A DNA stretch of 54,770 nucleotides, taken from the IMG/VR virus record IMGVR_UViG_3300021411_000001, positions 1 to 54,770 of that record; one strand, 5' to 3'. Shown here in pieces: positions 2,686 to 54,770 of this stretch (its first letter is position 1; each line of letters starts with the position of its first letter). The notes under the pieces are model-generated. The model was not told where the DNA came from and did not search any database. It worked only from the letters and a program-made list of their open reading frames with translations. The position numbers and the translations under genes are program-made. This DNA comes from a virus (Duplodnaviria > Caudoviricetes).

Positions 2686-3410
2686 GCGGTCTCTCCGGTC
2701 ATCCAGTTGAACTCTCCACCGCCCTGCATGAGATCAGGCATCACCATCGGATCCATGTGGTCGACTACATTGCCGGCCTTGATGGCTGCGTAGCTTCCAG
2801 CTGCCAGTGCAGCGACTGCAGGTTCGATCTCGGTCACTCCCATGGCCAGGAGCACTGCCAGATTCGATATAACGGCCATCCGGTAGCCCGGAGGGAGCGC
2901 CAAGGTCAATCCTATGGTTGCGAACTCGGGGACTGCCACAGGCACGTATAGAATGACCTGGTTGGCCTCACTTGGTATTGGGTAGAGCCAGACTGTGGCG
3001 AGAGGACTTGTGCCTGCATATGTCTTCTCGAAGAACAGGGATCGTGGCAGCTCAGAGGTGATAGTCTTCACGGGCACACGTGCCCATTCTTTCAGGGTGA
3101 GGATCCGCATTGGCAGCTCGACGTCGTCACCGATTATCAGGTCAATGAGCCCTGCGGCGTCGATCCACATCGGCCTTGCAGTATCCCATGCCCCACCTGT
3201 TCCTACCGTGTAGCTCTGCGTGCCAGCGACCAGGTTGAAAGGGCCGACGCGCGAGCGGACGGGAATGGCCAGGCGGTCGATGCTCCAAATGTCCAGCATC
3301 TGGTTCAGCTTGCTCAGGCCGTACTGCATTTCGGCATCGGTCAGCGTCTCGCCCAGGGCAAGACTTCCGGCCATCACCGACGCTTCAGTTATCGCTTCGC
3401 CTACAGTCAT
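2682..3410 (-). CDS. P22 gp4-like head-to-tail adaptor
   Basis: MTVGEAITEAS..GSLALGETL..GLSKLNQMLDIWS and LPPGYRMAVISNLAVLL; position downstream of the coat gene. Confidence 0.75.
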   Translation of the reverse strand: MTVGEAITEASVMAGSLALGETLTDAEMQYGLSKLNQMLDIWSIDRLAIPVRSRVGPFNLVAGTQSYTVGTGGAWDTARPMWIDAAGLIDLIIGDDVELPMRILTLKEWARVPVKTITSELPRSLFFEKTYAGTSPLATVWLYPIPSEANQVILYVPVAVPEFATIGLTLALPPGYRMAVISNLAVLLAMGVTEIEPAVAALAAGSYAAIKAGNVVDHMDPMVMPDLMQGGGEFNWMTGETA

Positions 3411-3427
3411 TGTTCTCTCGTTTCCTT

Positions 3428-3450
3428 GGGCGGGGCTTGTGGCCCCGCCC
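3428..3450 (-). promoter_or_regulatory. GC-rich intergenic hairpin without U-tract
   Basis: GGGCGGGGC-N5-GCCCCGCCC. Confidence 0.5.
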
Positions 3451-3458
3451 TGTTGCGG

Positions 3459-3908
3459 TTAAGTCAGGTCTTCGGCGTCCTTGCCTTCGTCACTGGCTTC
3501 CTTTGTCGGTTCGTCTTCACCACCGAGCTTGGAGGTCAGTTCGAGGACAATCTCTTCGACAGCAGCGAGCCGTGAGTTGATGTCGCGATTTTCCGCCAGG
3601 AGTACGCGAATCAGAGCATCACTTGCTGCACTTGCTTCTTTCTTCTGCACCTCTTCTTTGGGTGCTTCGGGAACTGGCACGAAGTCTTCACCGAATCCTG
3701 CGTCCTTAGCGGACTGAAATTCGACTTCGCTGTTCACTGTCTTGGACTCACCTTTCGGTCCGTACAGGATTTTCGGGAAATGGGAGTGGACATACTTCGG
3801 CCCAAAGCCCTGCGCCTTGAACTGCGCGACTTCGGTGTCGTTGTTTGCTACCTTCGATTCGCCTTTGGCGTTGTAGAGGTAGAGGGGATACTTGCTATTC
3901 ATGAGCAT
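3459..3908 (-). CDS. Hypothetical head-region protein with a two-fold internal repeat
   Basis: YPLYLYNAKGESKVANNDTEV / FPKILYGPKGESKTVNSEVEF repeats, then a coiled coil; GAAAGGA RBS. Confidence 0.7.
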   Translation of the reverse strand: MLMNSKYPLYLYNAKGESKVANNDTEVAQFKAQGFGPKYVHSHFPKILYGPKGESKTVNSEVEFQSAKDAGFGEDFVPVPEAPKEEVQKKEASAASDALIRVLLAENRDINSRLAAVEEIVLELTSKLGGEDEPTKEASDEGKDAEDLT

Positions 3909-9571: not shown

Positions 9572-9736
9572 TTAGTAGGCATACTTTTTCTTTTTCTTCT
9601 TCGCCATACTCGCAGCGAAGTCCCTCAGTGACGTCTTAGGCATACTCAGCATCCCCTTGTTGCGGGCGTACAATTTGTCGGGTGCGTGCAGCGCGATAGC
9701 CATTGCCTCGCGCTGCTTCTCGCTCTTCGCGGGCAT
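9572..9736 (-). CDS. Small basic protein (DUF3008-like, 54 aa), absent from the ORF track
   Basis: Hand-translated MPAKSEKQREAMAIALHAPDKLYARNKGMLSMPKTSLRDFAASMAKKKKKKYAY; GGAGG RBS. Confidence 0.7.
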   Translation of the reverse strand: MPAKSEKQREAMAIALHAPDKLYARNKGMLSMPKTSLRDFAASMAKKKKKKYAY

Positions 9737-9737
9737 G

Positions 9738-10322
9738 CTAGCCTCCAGTTATTTCGGTCCAGGCAAGCTCAACTAGCAATTCGGCCTGCCCTGCCGCACC
9801 GAAAAGATTCTCGTTCAGAATGACCAGCCCTTCATTCTGCTTTAGCACGAAGGGGTACTCACCTGCCTCGAGCTCGAGGTCATTGGAGTAGACGGCCGGG
9901 TTCGGCGTTGTGATGGTCAAGTTCGTATTCAGCGTCAGTATCGGGTGCGTGTCGAGGGTCTTGGTCCCGGATGTAAGGCCAGCGGCAAGCGATATTGACC
10001 CGCGCATGTCCCCTGTGGCGATCTTTGTGTTGGGCTGCTTGATATTCTTCTTGCCACTATTGGGCGTCAATGCAGCGCCTGCAGTATCAGACACCGTCCA
10101 GTTCCTTGCAATCCAGGCGTCATAGCGCGGGAAGATGGTGGCTGTCGCAGCAACGTTCTGTATGGCCCGCAGCTTCAGCTTGTCGATTCGAAGGAAGGTA
10201 TCCGGATCCGTCCAGCGGAGCGAGAACACTAAACTGCCAGCCGCCTGGGTCGCTATGAGCAACAGGTCGATTGACGTCCTGAACTGCCCGATTACTCCGC
10301 TGTCTTGAAGTCGTGGTAGCAT
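9738..10322 (-). CDS. Hypothetical beta-rich protein, possibly virion-associated
   Basis: AGGAGAGGAG RBS; fills the operon between TerL and portal. Confidence 0.65.
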   Translation of the reverse strand: MLPRLQDSGVIGQFRTSIDLLLIATQAAGSLVFSLRWTDPDTFLRIDKLKLRAIQNVAATATIFPRYDAWIARNWTVSDTAGAALTPNSGKKNIKQPNTKIATGDMRGSISLAAGLTSGTKTLDTHPILTLNTNLTITTPNPAVYSNDLELEAGEYPFVLKQNEGLVILNENLFGAAGQAELLVELAWTEITGG

Positions 10323-10332
10323 CTCCTCTCCT

Positions 10333-10656
10333 TTAGTAGCTTCCGCTCTCGGTTTTCTCTTCGGCTGCGATCTCGCCGATCTTCTTGGTGAGGAAGTCCG
10401 TCACTCCCTTGTAGTCTTCGAAGACGAACTTTTCATCTGGCAGGTAGTCGCTGCAGTAGACTTCCTTTTTGCGGTTCGCTGCCTGAATTTCCGGCTTCAT
10501 GCAATAGCTGCACCGGACTGTCAGTCCGTTCTCTGCAGGCTCGATGTTGATGCTGGAAATGTAGAAGTCGCTCTTCTTCGCTTTCTTCTGCTTGATCCTC
10601 GCCGATACGCCGAGGTCGCTCTCTGTCACTTGACTTTTGGCCACTGTTCCCTCCAT
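10333..10656 (-). CDS. Hypothetical protein
   Basis: ATG overlaps the upstream TAA (or GTG at about 10644 after GGAGGG); ISSINIEPAENG motif. Confidence 0.6.
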   Translation of the reverse strand: MEGTVAKSQVTESDLGVSARIKQKKAKKSDFYISSINIEPAENGLTVRCSYCMKPEIQAANRKKEVYCSDYLPDEKFVFEDYKGVTDFLTKKIGEIAAEEKTESGSY

Positions 10657-10847
10657 TAGACTTGTGCTGGGGCAGGGCCCCACTCTTCTTGTCGCCTTAA
10701 AAAAGGCTTGACCGTTTCAAATACCTGGCGTCGGTGCTCTTCTGGCACACGGCCGAGCACAGCCTGCAATTCCGCATGCGACCTGATGCTGCGGGCCATC
10801 CGTATCATCTTGAGTCGGGCACGGGCTGCTTTCTGACGCGGTTTCAT
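10656..10847 (-). CDS. Small basic hypothetical protein
   Basis: 63-aa ORF in operon orientation, coupled to the next gene. Confidence 0.5.
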   Translation of the reverse strand: MKPRQKAARARLKMIRMARSIRSHAELQAVLGRVPEEHRRQVFETVKPFLRRQEEWGPAPAQV

Positions 10848-10893
10848 ATATCCAACTAGGCCGCTGTGGCGCAGGATTATTTAGCCAGCGTTT

Positions 10894-11664
10894 TCAATTG
10901 CTCATCCAGCCCTGCGCATTGCCCCCTATGACCCATTCGCCAGAACCCGGTACGACAAGCAGTTCTGCCGGCTTCGGGGTCCACTTGCTGATTGCCATCA
11001 GACCATAGCGGAAGGCATCCATAAGGTGGTCGTTTCGCTTAACTGGCTTGCCTTTAAGGTCGCGCCGGTACATCCTGTACTCTTCCTGGAAGTACTTGCA
11101 GGTCTTGAACACCTTGAATCTGCCGCTGGAGAGGCGGAGCCAGGCCTCATAGATGCCTGCTTCAACGGAGTTGTCTGCCAACTCGAGATTAAGGCCAAGC
11201 TTCCGGTATGTGTTCGTTAGTTGCTCGCCATCCTCTGCTTTGCGCTCGCCGTTGGCACTGGGGTCGATATGGCCGAGCATCCACTCGCCCCTCGCCTTGA
11301 TTGCTCCTGCATGCTCGTAGGGCGATACGCCTCCCATGTAGTGCTCAGACCACAGATAGACTGTATCGGTCTGAATGTCCCACGCCATGAATGCCGCAGC
11401 CGTTCTGTTCCAGCCTACGTCGAAGCCGTACCCCCGCATCCAGTGCGCTGGGATCTCGAAGTCGGCGATCAGGATGTCCTCGAGCGAGGCACACTGGTAG
11501 ATCAGCCCTGATCCCAGGTTCGGTATCCCGCGCATGCGAGCATCTCTCTGGTACTCCGGGATCGTCTTCGCGAGCTCATCACGCATCCCCTTGTCGAGGT
11601 GCGGTGCGTCGTCCCATGTCGCGGTTATGACTGCTCGTGCGTTCTTCTGCTCGAGGACTTCCAT
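10894..11664 (-). CDS. terL: Terminase large subunit, C-terminal part (ATPase lid + RNase H-like nuclease)
   Basis: ATWDDAPHL, DARMRGIPNLGSG, GFDVGW, IDPS, NSVEAGI, NDHLMDAFRY (P22 gp2-like); own AAGGAG RBS. Confidence 0.9.
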   Translation of the reverse strand: MEVLEQKNARAVITATWDDAPHLDKGMRDELAKTIPEYQRDARMRGIPNLGSGLIYQCASLEDILIADFEIPAHWMRGYGFDVGWNRTAAAFMAWDIQTDTVYLWSEHYMGGVSPYEHAGAIKARGEWMLGHIDPSANGERKAEDGEQLTNTYRKLGLNLELADNSVEAGIYEAWLRLSSGRFKVFKTCKYFQEEYRMYRRDLKGKPVKRNDHLMDAFRYGLMAISKWTPKPAELLVVPGSGEWVIGGNAQGWMSN

Positions 11665-11665
11665 G

Positions 11666-12214
11666 CTACTCCTTAGACAACTGGCTTGAGATCATCTTGT
11701 TCTTCGCATCCGACCCTGCGCTGGAGCCAAAATAGTACGCCAAGACCATGATTAGGGCGGAGTCCATGGTCCCCATGACGCGCCCGACTACCACACCATC
11801 GATGTCCTTCGGCAGGCCATGCCAAAGGATGATCCCCTCGAAGAGCAGTGTGATGCCCACGACTACGAAGGCGAGGATCTTGTTAGTATGGTCCTTGACT
11901 GCGACCTCGCGAGCCCTGGCGTCCGCTCGATCGGCATTGTCCGCAGCGAGGAGGGCTTCTGCACTGTTGATGCCAATCTCCTTCATCTTAATTGTGAAGT
12001 CATTCTCGATCTGCTTCAGTTTGAGGAATGCTTCGGGATCCACTGCCTGTGCCTGGGCTATCGCGTCCGATATGCCGACGTGTGATGCTTCAACCTTGTC
12101 GAGGCCGAATGCCTTGCCGACCATCGAGGCGACAATGACTGCCGGCGGTCCGCCTATGCTCGCCGCTGCAGAAATGAATGGATAAGCTTTCCCAAGAATG
12201 TCCTTGAAACCCAT
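11666..12214 (-). CDS. Probable holin (3TM-holin-like), located between the two terL parts
   Basis: Start MGFKDILG after AAAGGAG; ADRADARAREV, two C-terminal TM helices, YYFGSSAGS. Confidence 0.75.
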   Translation of the reverse strand: MGFKDILGKAYPFISAAASIGGPPAVIVASMVGKAFGLDKVEASHVGISDAIAQAQAVDPEAFLKLKQIENDFTIKMKEIGINSAEALLAADNADRADARAREVAVKDHTNKILAFVVVGITLLFEGIILWHGLPKDIDGVVVGRVMGTMDSALIMVLAYYFGSSAGSDAKNKMISSQLSKE

Positions 12215-12447
12215 GATCCTTCTCCTTTGATTTTGTGATGGCAGCCTGGTGCGTTCAGCACATAGGCTTCCAGCTTCTCTGCGAATACCCATGCAGCGTC
12301 CACCAATTCGTCCTCGTCATTACCTGCCTGAAAGAACGAGCAGTTAGTTGCATTAGGGTGGCGCAGCGTCATGAACTGGTCCGTTAGTTCGGTCTCGAAA
12401 CCCCTCATATCGAGTTCTATCAGCTTCCACGCGCTTCGTGGCGTCAT
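12154..12447 (-). CDS. Hypothetical protein (97 aa) between the two terL parts
   Basis: MTPRSAWKL start overlaps the terL-N stop (ATGA); AAGGAAGGAG RBS. Confidence 0.6.
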   Translation of the reverse strand: MTPRSAWKLIELDMRGFETELTDQFMTLRHPNATNCSFFQAGNDEDELVDAAWVFAEKLEAYVLNAPGCHHKIKGEGSWVSRTFLGKLIHSFLQRRA

Positions 12448-13217
12448 AGCTTGTCTCCTTCCTTGTCGTACATCTCTGTGACCTCCGTCAGTCCTAGGAC
12501 CGGCGTGTAGGTCAGTATCACTATCCCGTCGACTGTCATAATGCGCATCTCGCATGCAGAATTCACATCGGCGGGCACTTCCTCGTCATTCCATATCACG
12601 TGCTTCGCATTTGACTCAAAGCTTTCTGCCCCCTGGGTGTAGGCCTTGAACTGAACCAACGAGGTCCCCCCCTTAACGTGCCTTACAGCTACGGTGTCCA
12701 TGCCGAACTTCGAAAAGCCGTGGTAGTTGTGCCGCACAATCAGTTCGCGCGGTATGAACCCGGATCCGATCTCTTCAGGTTTCTGCGGGTTGCCCAACAG
12801 TGCGGCCTGGTTGACATCGCGCACCTTCTCCCATGAGATGTTGCTGGCCCACACCTCTACTGGCTCTGTGAATACCTTGCCATCCCACCAGTCGGGATAG
12901 ATGCCTGTCAGGTGGCAGGTCACCTCGTACGCCGCAGCCTCAGTCTTGCCGATACGGTTGGCCGCGCGGAAACACCTGAAGCGGTAGATCTTCCCTGCGC
13001 TGAAGAAGATCATGTGCTTCGTGTACTTCCTGCGGGCGTGCATCAGCTTGCCGCCGACGATTGTGTCCTCGTCTGGGAAGTAGATCCTGAACTTGTGCGC
13101 TGCCTTCGAGGCCAACTCGAGCACCTCGCGGTTCGCAGCATCGCCTGCAGCCCTTGCTGTGAGCGTCTCGAATGCTTTAACTGCCTTCTTACCGCTAAGC
13201 AGGTCTCCGAGTCTCAC
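12444..13217 (-). CDS. terL: Terminase large subunit, N-terminal ATPase part
   Basis: Walker A RAANRIGKT, HLTGIYPDWWDGK, Walker B VIWNDEE, coupling motif LTYTP; GTG start overlapping the upstream TGA. Confidence 0.9.
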   Translation of the reverse strand: MRLGDLLSGKKAVKAFETLTARAAGDAANREVLELASKAAHKFRIYFPDEDTIVGGKLMHARRKYTKHMIFFSAGKIYRFRCFRAANRIGKTEAAAYEVTCHLTGIYPDWWDGKVFTEPVEVWASNISWEKVRDVNQAALLGNPQKPEEIGSGFIPRELIVRHNYHGFSKFGMDTVAVRHVKGGTSLVQFKAYTQGAESFESNAKHVIWNDEEVPADVNSACEMRIMTVDGIVILTYTPVLGLTEVTEMYDKEGDKL

Positions 13218-13927
13218 AGCAGTCCCCCATCGTAATTCGCCATTGTGCATGACACGCCAGCATCATTGCCGAAGAAGTAGATGCCCGGCATGCCGTACGA
13301 TATCGGGCCGACCGCGTCCACGAATGTCCCTTGGAGGGTCCCGTTAAGGTACGCTCGGATGGTCGTGAAGCCGACTGACAGGGCAGCTTCGATCCTCAAC
13401 GTGTCGCCGGCGACGACCGAGGGAATGGTCCCCAATGACGCTAGACTGACACTACCGGATTTGAAAACATCCACTGCTAGGCCGACCTTCCTGATGCAGA
13501 GCCAATATGCGTTGCCCCTGTTCGGGTCTATGCACACGCCGGGGCCTATCGCATTCCCGGCTCCGGGTGTACCTGACGGAGCATTGGATACGACCGTTAT
13601 CTGCGAGTACTGGTTCGCGCCAGACAGCAAGTCCTGCGAGAGTTTGGTCGGTAGGAAAGCGCACTTCGCCGTGCCACCCCCCGTCGTCGTAAGGCCAGTG
13701 ACCCCCAGATTCAGAAGTCCGTCGAGCGTGGAGCCAGCAGTGCCTGAGTCGGGCCCGAAGCAGACCTGCCATTCCGAAGTTATAAAAGAAGTTAATTCGT
13801 CGGGCGGCGTAGTGAGCGGGTCTGTGAACCTCGTGCGCCCGCCGTTGATGTTGCTGTCCTCCGGCCAGATGCGGAACTCCTTGCGCCTGTAAAGTGGCCC
13901 TGAAGCGGGGGTTACTCGTAGTGGCAT
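13214..13927 (-). CDS. Beta-sandwich (lectin-like) putative tail/virion protein
   Basis: Start MPLRVTP coupled by TGATG; Gly/Ser/Thr-rich; GDTLRIEA..TIRAYLNGTLQGT..G.PGIY. Confidence 0.55.
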   Translation of the reverse strand: MPLRVTPASGPLYRRKEFRIWPEDSNINGGRTRFTDPLTTPPDELTSFITSEWQVCFGPDSGTAGSTLDGLLNLGVTGLTTTGGGTAKCAFLPTKLSQDLLSGANQYSQITVVSNAPSGTPGAGNAIGPGVCIDPNRGNAYWLCIRKVGLAVDVFKSGSVSLASLGTIPSVVAGDTLRIEAALSVGFTTIRAYLNGTLQGTFVDAVGPISYGMPGIYFFGNDAGVSCTMANYDGGLL

Positions 13928-14259
13928 CAGCTTGGTACCGCCGCCATGGTAAGGAAGTAATCGATATCCGCCCCCGCAGTCTGCCATGCCTGGATCGTAT
14001 CGCCAGGCAGGATCTGCAGGCGGAGGTCGATCTCAAGCGTCTGACCTGGCTTCAACACGCTGTTGGTCGAGTCGCCTGCGAAGACATATACCCCTGCGAT
14101 GAGCAGGTTGATAATCCTGCTCGATGCCCCGCGATTGCACATGGTGCCGAACAGTCTGACTGACTGCTTGCTTGCTGGGGCATCCATAAGGACTGAGGGC
14201 GTAATGCTGAGTGTGCCGATCGCCCTCGTTAGTGTCGACACTCCTATCGGTGCTGCCAT
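13927..14259 (-). CDS. Small beta-rich putative virion protein
   Basis: GGAG RBS; ends ILPGDTIQAW...; in the tail cluster. Confidence 0.55.
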   Translation of the reverse strand: MAAPIGVSTLTRAIGTLSITPSVLMDAPASKQSVRLFGTMCNRGASSRIINLLIAGVYVFAGDSTNSVLKPGQTLEIDLRLQILPGDTIQAWQTAGADIDYFLTMAAVPS

Positions 14260-33425: not shown

Positions 33426-34379
33426 ATGGTTAAGGACTTTTGGGAGTTCGTCTATGAGCGCCAGCAGATGTGGCTGCGCAGAGAGGCAGGAGTGCCGCGT
33501 GAGGAATGGACGACTGACCCCACACTAAAGACACAGTTCTTCACCAATGTGTTCAGGGAACTCGACCCAGGTACTGACGTCGCACTTGAGATCATGTCTG
33601 AACCGGACAGACCAAAATGGGAGCGGTTGTGGAACTTGGTGTTGTACAGGCGCATCAATCGTGAGGACACTTGGCGCAAGTACATAAGATACATTAAAAA
33701 CCCGCGTCCAGTCGATCTGCTGGTTATACTTGACAACCTAAAGGAGGAGCGAAAGAAACGCGTTTCGATCTTCACCGATGCACACCAAATCTCGCCACTC
33801 GCAAACATCAAGGGGGCGGACCTGCTCGAGCGGGTCTTCCAATGCGCAAAGGACTTCCTGCGAGATGTTGGTCTTGCCGAATTGGACTTGTCCGATGCCC
33901 GCAACATCCAGGAGTTCTTCACACTGTCATCAAGTGTGCTCGGCCCAGGTATCGGTTCTTTCCTCGGCTGGCAGCTGTCGATGGACATGCGGTATGGCCC
34001 TGATCCTATCAACTGCTTCTCTGATGATGAGTGGGCGCCCATCACCCATGGTGCTAAGACTGGTCTCACACTGATGATGAACTGGCCAGTCGTTGGTGTC
34101 GTATCCGGTCAACTTCCAACTGCGGACCTTAAGGCGAAGTTCCCAGGCATCCCAGTCTTCAAGTCCGCATCCAAGTACGATCTCGAGATCGAGGCCCGGC
34201 GGATGAGGGACTCGCAGGACGATGAGTTCGAGGAGAGACTGCTGAACTTCGCCGATGTCGCAGCGCCGGGCTACGAGCGGCTGACTATGGCTGCGATCGA
34301 GCACTCACTTTGCGAGTGGCAGAAGTATGTCGGCTTCTCACGTGGACTGCTTGGGGGTGGACGTGGCTACAAGAAATAA
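33426..34379 (+). CDS. 5-hmdU DNA kinase-like (aGPT-Pplase1 helical domain) base-modification protein
   Basis: FVYERQQMW..R..G...WTTDPTL..FFTNVFRELD, GIGSFLGWQLSMD, IEHSLCEWQKY. Confidence 0.8.
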   Translation: MVKDFWEFVYERQQMWLRREAGVPREEWTTDPTLKTQFFTNVFRELDPGTDVALEIMSEPDRPKWERLWNLVLYRRINREDTWRKYIRYIKNPRPVDLLVILDNLKEERKKRVSIFTDAHQISPLANIKGADLLERVFQCAKDFLRDVGLAELDLSDARNIQEFFTLSSSVLGPGIGSFLGWQLSMDMRYGPDPINCFSDDEWAPITHGAKTGLTLMMNWPVVGVVSGQLPTADLKAKFPGIPVFKSASKYDLEIEARRMRDSQDDEFEERLLNFADVAAPGYERLTMAAIEHSLCEWQKYVGFSRGLLGGGRGYKK

Positions 34380-54414: not shown

Positions 54415-54770
54415 TTCGGTCCCGTCTCCTCTGGCCTCGATAGGCCTAATAGAATGCTATCCCACAGTACACCCTTTTTCATATAGCTTTTTGGATTTAA
54501 TCCGTATTGCACCATACCGCAGCGCTTGGCAAAGGCAAGAGCTACCCGGTTGTATGCTGGGACCAGGGTCACCAATCGGTGGAACTTTGTAGCGTCCCAC
54601 ACCCACTTCTCCATCAGCTTGCCTGCCTTCACTGCCTTCGAGCCATACGCGCGAGGCAGCAGGCAAGTGTGAACTTCCGCCATGGCCATATTCTGGGTTA
54701 CCAGCACGAACAACCCGAGCTCAGAGCCATCATCGTCATAGATCATCACATACCGCATCGCCGGTGTGTC
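54405..54770 (-). CDS. P22 gp14-like GNAT-fold protein, 3' part (starts at 244 across the circular join)
   Basis: EVHTCLLP, LVTLVPAYNRVALAFAKRCG, GLNPKSY.K.G. Confidence 0.75.
   Translation of the reverse strand, partial: DTPAMRYVMIYDDDGSELGLFVLVTQNMAMAEVHTCLLPRAYGSKAVKAGKLMEKWVWDATKFHRLVTLVPAYNRVALAFAKRCGMVQYGLNPKSYMKKGVLWDSILLGLSRPEETGPKCQ
54644..54770. repeat. Terminal direct repeat, second copy
   Basis: Identical to 1..127. Confidence 0.97.

Follow-up and report, generated by a model that had tools for sequence, protein, structure and literature searches.

The large terminase subunit (TerL) is the best-studied viral motor protein and a universal marker of tailed phages, and to our knowledge it has always been treated as a single chain. 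Other essential phage genes are known to occur in pieces: the T4 topoisomerase genes 39 and 60, with mobA, encode an enzyme that assembles non-covalently, and nrdA of Aeromonas phage Aeh1 is split by mobE. TerL genes carrying split inteins are known as well, and in the gene of the herpesvirus terminase pUL15 the intron between two exons contains other genes. The DNA polymerase of an OM43 phage is described as two ORFs with a small ORF between them (PMC10580990). Two further sources report terL genes cut by group I introns in the Jug phages, with RNA reads across the splice sites (PMC12880540), and TerL inteins in cyanophage Mic1 (PMC7156551).

Here we describe an interrupted terL in the genome of a soil phage of the Caudoviricetes (IMG/VR record IMGVR_UViG_3300021411_000001), the whole 54,770-nt stretch of which is referred to below as the window. 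As in the genes in pieces, an essential enzyme is encoded by two ORFs with unrelated genes between them, without intron or intein, and its function is presumably retained through subunit association. Where genes in pieces arise through a free-standing homing endonuclease they differ from the window, whose gap holds none; they differ further in that the window's family has been split many times at the same site, often without an insert, and in that the enzyme is the packaging motor. The gene of pUL15, a terminase ATPase from the same realm, is likewise cut within the ATPase region with unrelated genes between its parts, but its cut lies at another position and its parts are joined by mRNA splicing, whereas the likely end product in the window is two chains. 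In the Jug phages and in Mic1, too, foreign DNA capable of carrying ORFs breaks up the coding sequence of TerL. However, the introns and inteins described there (PMC12880540, PMC7156551) restore one polypeptide by RNA or protein splicing, while no splicing element was detectable in the window and its relatives point to halves that operate as separate genes. A full-text literature search, with supplements and subscription journals outside its scope, returned no paper on a two-gene TerL free of inteins and introns. We consider it very likely that the TerL of the window is naturally two-chained and that accessory genes use the junction inside it as a slot.

Gene anatomy of the terminase locus

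In the window, ATPase and nuclease are encoded not on one polypeptide but in two ORFs, with exactly 779 nt (11665-12443) between the stop of the first and the start of the second. A first-pass annotation, made from the sequence alone, had reported terL as two genes at this distance, the second with an AAGGAG ribosome-binding site, and coordinates, ORFs and Pfam matches agree with it. The locus comprises the following features:

10894-11664, minus strand: TerL-C gene, 256 aa (ORF with a Pfam Terminase_6C match)
11666-12214, minus strand: gap ORF H, 182 aa, holin-like membrane protein, with AAAGGAG upstream
12154-12447, minus strand: gap ORF O, 97 aa, ORFan
12444-13250, minus strand: TerL-N gene, 268 aa (ORF with a Pfam Terminase_6N match)

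TerL-N ends in ...LTYTPVLGLTEVTEMYDKEGDKL*, 18 residues past TYTP, which bears out the earlier remark that the N part stops shortly after the coupling motif. It spans the ATPase core through that motif, with what we take, from general knowledge of TerL, to be Walker A (G101-K102-T103), Walker B (D222-E223-E224) and the coupling motif TxTP (T249-P250); all of these residues were invariant in an alignment of 17 proteins consisting of the N half only. TerL-C begins MEVLEQKNARAVITATWDDAPHL, from its own ATG placed 1 nt past the stop of H and preceded by AAGGAG. It contains the last strand of the ATPase core (residues ~8-17), the lid helices (25-44) and an RNase H-like nuclease (from residue ~50).

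The cut follows the coupling motif and precedes the next core strand, which places it about 50 residues ahead of the nuclease. Terminase_6N spans both halves, with positions 2-145 of its 215 matching TerL-N (31.1 bits against a cut-off of 22) and positions 161-211 matching TerL-C (14 bits, below the cut-off by itself), so that the break falls inside the ATPase region and before the lid, as had been proposed. TerL-C matched Terminase_6C at 38.6 bits against a cut-off of 22.6. Residues 50-223 of TerL-C resembled the P22 nuclease domain 4DKW (E 2e-21). TerL-N had no PDB match at sequence level, as a single sequence or as a profile, while the top PDB folds for its AF2 model (pLDDT 79) were the TerL ATPase domains of T4 gp17 (2o0j) and P74-26 (4znk); the AF2 model of TerL-C had a pLDDT of 85. 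By homology, the TerL of the window is a member of the Terminase_6 (P22/T4-like) family with an atypical, predicted two-chain architecture. A six-frame search of the whole genome recovered the same two TerL pieces only, and other terminase families were absent. The genome, of 54.8 kb with a 127-bp assembly overlap, is rated 100% complete and encodes a P22-type portal and coat.

The junction in one-piece relatives

Two one-chain TerLs served as references, gp39 of EBPR podovirus 1 and gene 3 of Chlorobiaceae phage CV-1-33. Both share the family and the motifs of the window's TerL (identity 38-39% to the N half and 50-53% to the C half); each is a single CDS of ~474-480 aa, whereas the window has a cut and two inserted genes. 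The one-piece relatives align through the window's junction with nothing lost and nothing added, and TerL-N residue ~266 and TerL-C residue 2 abut in EBPR podovirus 1 gp39.

This alignment bears on two explanations by which a single TerL would still be made. Firstly, a split intein of the GOS-TerL or AceL-TerL type could join the halves after translation, and TerL inteins have been described for cyanophage Mic1 (PMC7156551). However, the abutting halves leave no spare sequence, so that neither side has space for an intein piece of 25-100 aa; the C chain opens with M-E-V and lacks His-Asn followed by Cys, Ser or Thr (relatives start MPEI.., MSR.. or MSK..), and neither half matched an intein Pfam family. 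We rejected the split intein on the junction alignment, which lacks extra residues, and regard it as extremely unlikely.

Secondly, the gap and its ORFs could belong to a self-splicing group I or II intron, whose removal from the mRNA would yield one full-length TerL. The insert does drop out cleanly in the alignment to one-piece relatives, and such introns are documented for other TerL genes, namely those of the Jug phages (PMC12880540). Against this, the N ORF has a stop and the C ORF its own ATG and ribosome-binding site, and some relatives' inserts hold opposite-strand genes. Moreover, in 33 relatives, the window's nearest tree neighbours among them, the halves are adjacent or overlap by 4-8 nt, and an intron would find no space between them. 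The intron was rejected because Rfam gave 0 matches at E≤1 on either strand of 10500-13600 and because the two ORFs, each with a ribosome-binding site of its own, take up the whole gap apart from 1 non-coding nt; we hold it to be quite improbable. The first-pass annotation had seen no intein, intron or homing nuclease in the gap, a view upheld by the clean alignment, the lack of an Rfam match and the lack of any nuclease family (Pfam, PHROG) in O or H.

Recurrence of the break

The split of TerL is recurrent and family-wide rather than a one-off, which is the new observation here. Related genomes were searched for the same breakpoint, a check that the first-pass annotation had suggested, and the same loop was found broken in 74 of 184 classifiable related loci (window included), a share of 40% that is biased in that the metagenome and genome scans used patterns derived by aligning N-only proteins; when IMG/VR was queried with single proteins, the split share was 1/6 and 6/37. 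The 184 loci divided into 110 with a one-piece gene, 33 split with adjacent halves, 29 split with an insert (0.17-4 kb in size) and 12 with the N half only. Relatives from the pattern scans of metagenomes and genomes were all at or below ~51% identity. The N-only proteins, 250-284 aa long and 56-72% identical, lie on contigs of up to 60 kb and share a common end point. Family-wide recurrence had been missed by the first-pass annotation.

Across 57 split loci, the N chain ended 15-31 residues (median 20) past TxTP, and the C chain started 4-23 residues (median 18) before a conserved P-H, with ATG in 47 loci, GTG in 8 and TTG in 2. Only 2 loci (L180, L207) were broken at another position of the gene. 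The C ORF of L071 had no canonical start ahead of the conserved strand. Split genes also occur in cultured strains (Acidovorax sp. Root219 and A1169, Vibrio galatheae S2757 and several Azospirillum), and GenBank MW202785.1 carries two CDS named 'large terminase protein', of 255 and 243 aa. The cargo of the gaps (54 ORFs) included DUF1643 and HTH_31, three of each, and one each of a PAS histidine kinase, Cpn10, Phage_gp49_66, HNH_3 with NUMOD4, and Beta_helix. A homing endonuclease, the HNH_3 and NUMOD4 protein of L112, was thus present in 1 of the 28 insert-bearing relatives with scanned gaps.

The adjacent-type loci raise the matter of ribosomal recoding, in which a frameshift or stop read-through at the junction would produce a fused TerL beside or instead of two chains. 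Consistent with it, the C frame lies one base back from the N frame at ATGA in many of these relatives (a 4-nt overlap of the ATGA type was present in 13 of the 31 adjacent-type loci within the 57), and an in-frame stop is all that intervenes in a few loci (L071, L109, L176, L208). However, recoding is impossible for the window itself, where 779 nt with many N-frame stops intervene. Among relatives, L035, L036, L038, L052, L005, L149, L168 and L225 share no common slippery motif, frame relations vary, and the C ORF had its own start codon in 57 of 57 loci examined. Recoding is, in our estimation, very unlikely.

Selection, phylogeny and integrity of the locus

Judged from dN/dS in 11 split-locus pairs, both halves of TerL are under purifying selection (N 0.011-0.247, C 0.044-0.250). 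On a tree of the N half, the split state required 21 changes, whereas 100 shuffles gave 57 on average and never fewer than 48, and at least 8 changes were forced by starred branches; the tree was built with FastTree from ~216 columns, 62 of its 171 inner branches are unresolved, and it does not distinguish splits from re-fusions. The window grouped with L071 and L149 (97*). As both of these nearest relatives are split without an insert, the split is older than the insertion.

The same data weigh on the possibility of an artefactual split or a dead gene, whether because the assembly is chimeric, because sequencing introduced a frameshift or because the phage is defective and needs a helper terminase. 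The genome is a metagenome assembly, and the runs holding the stretch in full all come from one sample. Yet Logan contigs of two runs (X1 record 2, covering 11295-13300, and X2 record 4, covering 11236-13079) run across both junctions without joints and with 0 differences, both runs being from one sample that is possibly the window's source; the mis-assembly that the first-pass annotation had wished to exclude was thus not seen at either junction. Furthermore, the same break appears in dozens of loci from differing samples and cultured strains, and the breaks gather in one loop. A dead gene would accord with the N-only loci of bacterial genomes that have no detectable C half, and since a C-half match was found anywhere in the genome in only 1 of 5 genomes with such loci, some split loci may be decaying prophages. 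In the window, however, both halves keep their motifs, dN/dS in the family does not exceed 0.25, and a genome rated complete without a second terminase argues against a defective phage. We therefore consider an artefact or a dead gene very improbable, and the earlier proposal of a naturally two-chain TerL gains support from the loss-free alignment of one-piece relatives and from the recurrence of the break.

Two further runs (X3, X4) held small shares of the stretch only, as 151-nt pieces inside H, O and TerL-N, and no habitat inference is drawn from them. None of the sequencing runs listed as holding the stretch is an RNA run. Identical copies of H and O are present on another contig, 54,784 bp long. 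Two of the closest N-only relatives may also carry H, as the lengths of their contigs (11379 and 38018) match those of contigs with H homologues.

Genes within the gap

The first-pass annotation had described two gap ORFs with ribosome-binding sites, the first coupled by ATGA to the TerL-N stop. Both ORFs and the coupling stand, with the amendment that the coupled ORF is the orphan O and not the holin-like H. The ATG of O overlaps the TerL-N stop and is preceded by AAGGAAGGAG. Since its 3' end shares 58 nt with the start of H and its GC3 (0.57-0.60) is lower than that of its neighbours (0.69-0.73), the coding status of O is less sure. O matched no Pfam, PHROG or nuclease family, no ESM Atlas feature and, in a search of 5.8 billion proteins, nothing other than itself; a small alpha/beta fold is its sole structural lead.

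H has three hydrophobic segments (Kyte-Doolittle peaks at 13-32, 112-132 and 140-160), and thereby the GTA_holin_3TM trait of about three such segments in a small membrane protein. It matches phrog_1544, a family of unknown function (E 2.8e-13), and carries the motifs DRxxAR and YYFGSS of its family alignment. One of its 70 homologues bears the UniRef name 'Holin of 3TMs, for gene-transfer release'; compared with ESM Atlas clusters of that name, H scored 0.96, the name's share being 11% in one cluster. Relatives of H are often flanked by peptidoglycan hydrolases, families found in up to 32 of 103 neighbouring ORFs. On the other side, H had no Pfam match even at E≤10, and so none to GTA_holin_3TM (PF11351), which also matched 0 of 30 members of the H family at E≤0.01. 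No endolysin family was found in the window (55 ORFs, with six-frame searches for 4 families and a PHROG alignment route that shows only 25 of 57 families), and the neighbours of H there are O and TerL-C. The earlier claim of a holin between the halves is thus favoured by the hydrophobic segments and by the hydrolase neighbours of relatives, and weakened by the missing PF11351 and endolysin matches; a holin is a plausible identity for H.

Single-protein scans of IMG/VR with H and with O gave no match, and the insert flanks showed no convincing direct or inverted repeats of the kind left by mobile elements. No promoter- or terminator-like sites were found. This, the gene order and the ribosome-binding sites suggest that the gap genes may be co-regulated with packaging.

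Predicted association of the two chains

A complex model of the two chains reached a median ipSAE of 0.85, compared with 0.01 for the best of 3 controls; in the benchmark for that mark, 58 of 80 solved complexes passed, as did 2 of 110 mismatched pairs, and a pass is to be read as likeness rather than binding because the model may remember solved one-chain TerL structures. The runs agreed in at least 77% of contacts, with a partner pLDDT of at least 76. In the model, the first strand of the C chain lies against the P-loop strand of the N chain, so that the ATPase sheet is rebuilt from both. The tightest contacts are between residues 89-95 of chain 1 and 10-14 of chain 2, and the interface of TerL-C comprises residues 8-17, 19-23 and 42-49.

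We propose, accordingly in conditional terms, that the large terminase is made as two polypeptides, an N chain with P-loop, Walker B and coupling motif and a C chain that would bring the next core beta-strand, the lid and the nuclease. Both would be translated separately, each from its own ribosome-binding site, on one late transcript. The chains would then come together again through non-covalent contacts: the C chain would pair its N-terminal strand with the P-loop strand of the N chain and pack its lid on top, which would restore the normal TerL fold and allow it to work in the packaging motor. The break would fall in a single surface loop that tolerates interruption and that members of this TerL family have repeatedly cut or joined again. 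After such a cut, the site between stop and start would be intergenic yet inside an essential late operon, and accessory genes may settle there. In this phage these would be an ORFan and a holin-like membrane protein, presumably expressed along with packaging because of their place at that junction.

Implications

A more ambitious proposal, which we offer as doubtful, treats the loop that joins the coupling motif to the last core strand as an evolved docking site and not just a tolerated break. Phages would repeatedly make their packaging motor two-chain and use the junction, inside an essential late operon, as protected space for accessory genes that change fast, among them holins, regulators, kinases and chaperonins. 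The halves on either side would then guard the cargo from deletion and guarantee its late co-expression, and the split may alter how Avs-type host sensors, which see the whole TerL fold, perceive the protein. On this proposal, the two-chain form of the motor would be an alternative architecture, widespread and so far unstudied, with a selective logic of its own.

The split would explain the half-length 'terminases' that gene callers and marker pipelines return from many prophages and viromes, and it would point to a previously unremarked hot spot for phage accessory genes. A common natural form cut in the ATPase core would also offer a ready-made system for studying communication between ATPase core, lid and nuclease, and the split prophages of cultured, harmless bacteria (Acidovorax, Azospirillum and Vibrio galatheae among them) make the idea directly testable.

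Organisation of the terminase locus

The large terminase (TerL) of the window is encoded in two pieces, TerL-N and TerL-C, separated by an ORFan (O) and a holin-like ORF (H):

12444-13250, minus strand: TerL-N, 268 aa, first in order
12154-12447, minus strand: ORF O, 97 aa, whose ATG forms ATGA with the TerL-N stop
11666-12214, minus strand: ORF H, 182 aa
10894-11664, minus strand: TerL-C, 256 aa, whose ATG lies 1 nt past the H stop

These coordinates agree with the 779 nt which the first-pass annotation had placed between the TerL-N stop and the TerL-C start. An AAGGAG-type ribosome-binding site lies upstream of each of O, H and TerL-C. The minus strand of the four genes shows no promoter-like or terminator-like site, an absence hinting that they may share a single transcript. 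Directly upstream, a 257-aa ORF (13214-13987, minus strand) overlaps the start of TerL-N by 37 nt; it has no PHROG match and is not recognisable as a small terminase, nor was a TerS identified elsewhere in the genome. Four small ORFs lie between TerL-C and the portal gene (9572-10847).

The window comprises an entire IMG/VR virus record, and CheckV rates the genome as 100% complete. It encodes P22-type portal and coat proteins, a primase, a DNA polymerase of family A and a set of genes for thymidine modification. At 33426-34331 (plus strand) lies a 5-hmdU DNA kinase domain (HMUDK_hel, E 2.6e-39) which, together with thymidylate-synthase-like, nucleoside 2-deoxyribosyltransferase and PRA-PH genes, suggests thymidine hypermodification of the phage DNA. 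Positions 1-127 are identical to 54644-54770; this 127-bp overlap, recorded as a 'direct terminal repeat', is typical of a circular assembly and is no sign of true phage ends.

Logan contigs from two runs bridge the gap intact, covering 11295-13300 and 11236-13079 with zero differences and zero joints, and are not fully independent, as both runs derive from one sample, possibly the window's own source. A second contig, of 54,784 bp, carries H and O letter for letter. The split is no assembly artefact, for which the comparative evidence below is stronger than the bridging contigs.

Two halves of one terminase

In Pfam, TerL-N covers positions 2-145 of 215 in Terminase_6N (31.1 bits, cut-off 22), while TerL-C covers positions 161-211 of the same family (14 bits) and then Terminase_6C at 38.6 bits. 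A six-frame search of the genome returned exactly these two terminase pieces, with no TerL_ATPase or Terminase_3 gene. The crystal structure of the P22 nuclease domain (4DKW) is matched by TerL-C residues 50-223 (E 2e-21); the cut thus falls within the ATPase domain, some 50 residues before the nuclease begins. The Pfam positions and this match bear out the earlier view that the break falls within the ATPase region.

The closest phages with annotation, EBPR podovirus 1 (gp39) and Chlorobiaceae phage CV-1-33 (gene 3), differ in having a single terminase CDS. When aligned on gp39, TerL-N residue ~266 and TerL-C residue 2 abut, so that no residues were lost or gained at the junction. Intein fragments were rejected, as halves which abut on a one-piece protein leave no room for them, and no Rfam family matched 10500-13600 at E<=1; the claim that the gap holds neither intein nor intron thus survives. 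We consider it very probable that TerL-N and TerL-C constitute a natural two-chain large terminase.

The AF2 model of the N chain (pLDDT 79) is a TerL ATPase core, with T4 gp17 (2o0j) and P74-26 (4znk) as best PDB matches (TM 0.44-0.48). Its strands include residues 91-95 before the P-loop, 218-222 at Walker B and 243-248 at the coupling motif, and its last helix spans residues 256-265. Modelled alone (pLDDT 85), the C chain is without structure in residues 1-16; the lid, two helices at 25-44, comes next, and then the nuclease. The complex model pairs C residues 8-17 with N residues 88-102 and sets the lid on N 249-268. At least 77% of contacts are shared between runs, partner pLDDT is 76 or more, and the median ipSAE is 0.85, the best of three controls reaching 0.01; 58 of 80 solved complexes attain the ipSAE mark, as do 2 of 110 mismatched pairs. 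Such pairing is what one would expect of a cut ASCE sheet restored by strand complementation: the N-terminal strand of chain C would join the sheet of chain N, reassembling the cut ATPase core. As one-chain TerL structures are already solved, the high score may reflect the predictor's prior exposure to them, and the model speaks for likeness rather than for binding.

Recurrence of the break in relatives

Searched against 5.8 billion proteins, TerL-N returned N-only proteins of 250-284 aa and 56-72% identity on contigs of 11-60 kb, and every one found stops within a few residues of the window's TerL-N end. We collected 223 loci from IMG/VR, JGI metagenomes and GTDB genomes which, with the records of EBPR podovirus 1 and phage CV-1-33, gave 225 (window excluded), and placed both TerL halves in each by tblastn. 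A stricter pass comprised 184 rows, the window among them.

Table. State of TerL in related loci (one-piece, single TerL CDS; split, N and C halves as separate ORFs; N only, without C half)
First pass (225 loci): one-piece, 111; split, 63; N then >1.5 kb without C, 11; cut by contig end, 23; no N match, 17
Stricter pass (184 rows): one-piece, 110; split, halves <150 nt apart, 33; split with insert, 29; N only, 12

The first-pass annotation had proposed a search for the same breakpoint in related genomes, and it is indeed present there, for example in the 33 adjacent and 29 insert-bearing rows of the 184. The split share was 1/6 in IMG/VR by C half and 6/37 by N half, 26/62 in metagenomes and 40/76 in genomes, the latter two biased upward by scans seeded from an alignment of N-only proteins. 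Within the genome set, the split form accounts for 31 of 39 Pseudomonadota loci and 9 of 25 Acidobacteriota loci, and several split loci belong to cultured strains. The circular 40-kb podovirus MW202785.1 (GenBank) carries two 'large terminase protein' CDS (255 and 243 aa) 133 nt apart.

Junctions read directly comprise ATGA overlaps in L035, L036, L038, L052, L168 and L225, TGATG in L005, and an 8-nt overlap preceded by GGAGGAAAGG in L149. Across 57 split loci, the N chain ends 15-31 residues past the TxTP motif (median 20) and the C chain starts 4-23 residues ahead of a conserved P-H (median 18), using ATG in 47 cases, GTG in eight and TTG in two. Only two loci (L180, L207) are broken elsewhere in the gene; random frameshift errors, which cannot explain breaks so concentrated at one site, were therefore ruled out as the cause. 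In L071 (5762-5823), the C half keeps its conserved first strand in frame, with no ATG, GTG or TTG between that strand and the preceding stop; this half may use a non-canonical start, or the C chain may be shortened. In L010, an IMG/VR contig of 4.7 kb, a portion of the TerL N region recurs inverted at the start of the contig (26-301, minus strand, and 3270-3692, plus strand), probably through an assembly fold-back.

Over 11 pairs of split loci, dN/dS ranged from 0.011 to 0.247 in the N half and from 0.044 to 0.250 in the C half. On a FastTree phylogeny of N halves (184 rows, 216 columns; unrooted, 62 of its 171 inner branches being open), 21 changes are required to account for the split/one-piece label. 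In 100 label shuffles the mean was 57 and the minimum 48, none of 500 separate shuffles was as low as observed, and well-supported branches force at least eight changes. The tree shows repeated transitions, their direction not being resolved by it. Split TerL forms are alive and arose more than once. The window clusters with L071 and L149 (97*), both split without insert; given these nearest neighbours, the cut most likely predates the arrival of O and H in the window's lineage. The split-TerL observation is confirmed, and its two-chain reading is supported and widened to relatives with the same cut.

Genes carried at the junction

From inserts of 0.17-4 kb in 28 loci, 54 candidate ORFs were hand-picked, the TerL strand being preferred. 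Their Pfam families include DUF1643 (3), HTH_31 (3), a PAS histidine kinase (1; L123:5764-6903, plus strand), Cpn10, Phage_gp49_66, a beta-helix protein and SlyX. An HNH_3+NUMOD4 homing-type endonuclease (1; metagenome locus L112:2861-3400, plus strand) is the sole nuclease among the 54 scanned. The junction acts as a slot open to accessory genes in general rather than as the seat of a single mobile element.

Opposite-strand cargo occurs in the gaps of three Acidovorax prophages (L181, L191, L192), where an XRE-type HTH gene on that strand accompanies DUF1643 genes; their near-identical TerL genes differ in gap size (705-2033 nt). Two Aminobacter prophages have gaps of 1.8 kb (L147:5696-7513) and 4.0 kb (L148:5681-9652), sharing a ~102-aa protein and a ~185-aa coiled-coil protein, with an additional 788-aa protein in the larger. 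The pair shows cargo growth at the junction within one genus.

As to the window's own cargo, O has no relatives among 5.8 billion proteins, a lower GC3 and a 58-nt overlap with H; it may have arisen recently or may not be a real gene. H, with three hydrophobic stretches, has 70 homologues in the protein search and at least 500 relatives in IMG/VR, across which the motifs DRxxAR and YYFGSS are conserved. It has no match to Pfam GTA_holin_3TM at E<=10, nor do any of 30 family members at E<=0.01; 'Holin of 3TMs' is nevertheless the name given to one relative in UniRef and, automatically, to two Atlas clusters. In none of 80 IMG/VR loci does this TerL lie within 3 kb of an H relative.

Neighbours of H relatives were scanned in 103 of 150 listed flanking ORFs, loci resembling near-duplicates by coordinates being dropped. 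Peptidoglycan-hydrolase families are frequent: Glyco_hydro_108 (13), Muramidase (6), Peptidase_M15_4 (4), Peptidase_M15_3 (3), Phage_lysozyme (2), Glyco_hydro_19 (2), Glucosaminidase (1) and VanY (1), at most 32 of the 103 ORFs since two families can share one. These neighbours give good indirect support to H as a putative lysis-cassette membrane protein. DUF5675 genes adjoin H-family genes in 3 of the 103 ORFs, at L228 and two further H-family loci, and may belong to the lysis cassettes of these phages. The 55 ORFs of the window include no recognised endolysin; a six-frame search with four families also found none, though two of the four control searches matched nowhere and are uninformative. 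H relatives of 66% and 60% identity lie on contigs of 11379 and 38018, sizes equal to those of the contigs bearing the N-only proteins P0002 and P0005, which suggests that the window's nearest relatives keep H.

Relation to other interrupted genes

T4-like phages possess 'genes in pieces', and the herpesvirus terminase is a two-exon gene; these are the closest mechanistic parallels, the two-ORF DNA polymerase of OM43 phages being another. [quoted passage not shown]

In the main texts of articles, mostly from outside subscription journals, we came across no account of a TerL that lacks inteins and introns and is cut within the ATPase core, of its recurrence or of its cargo. Such a cut is apparently undescribed. 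In this P22-like TerL family, the probable two-chain TerL is a recurrent architecture, and its internal junction collects accessory genes, in the window an ORFan and a holin-like protein.
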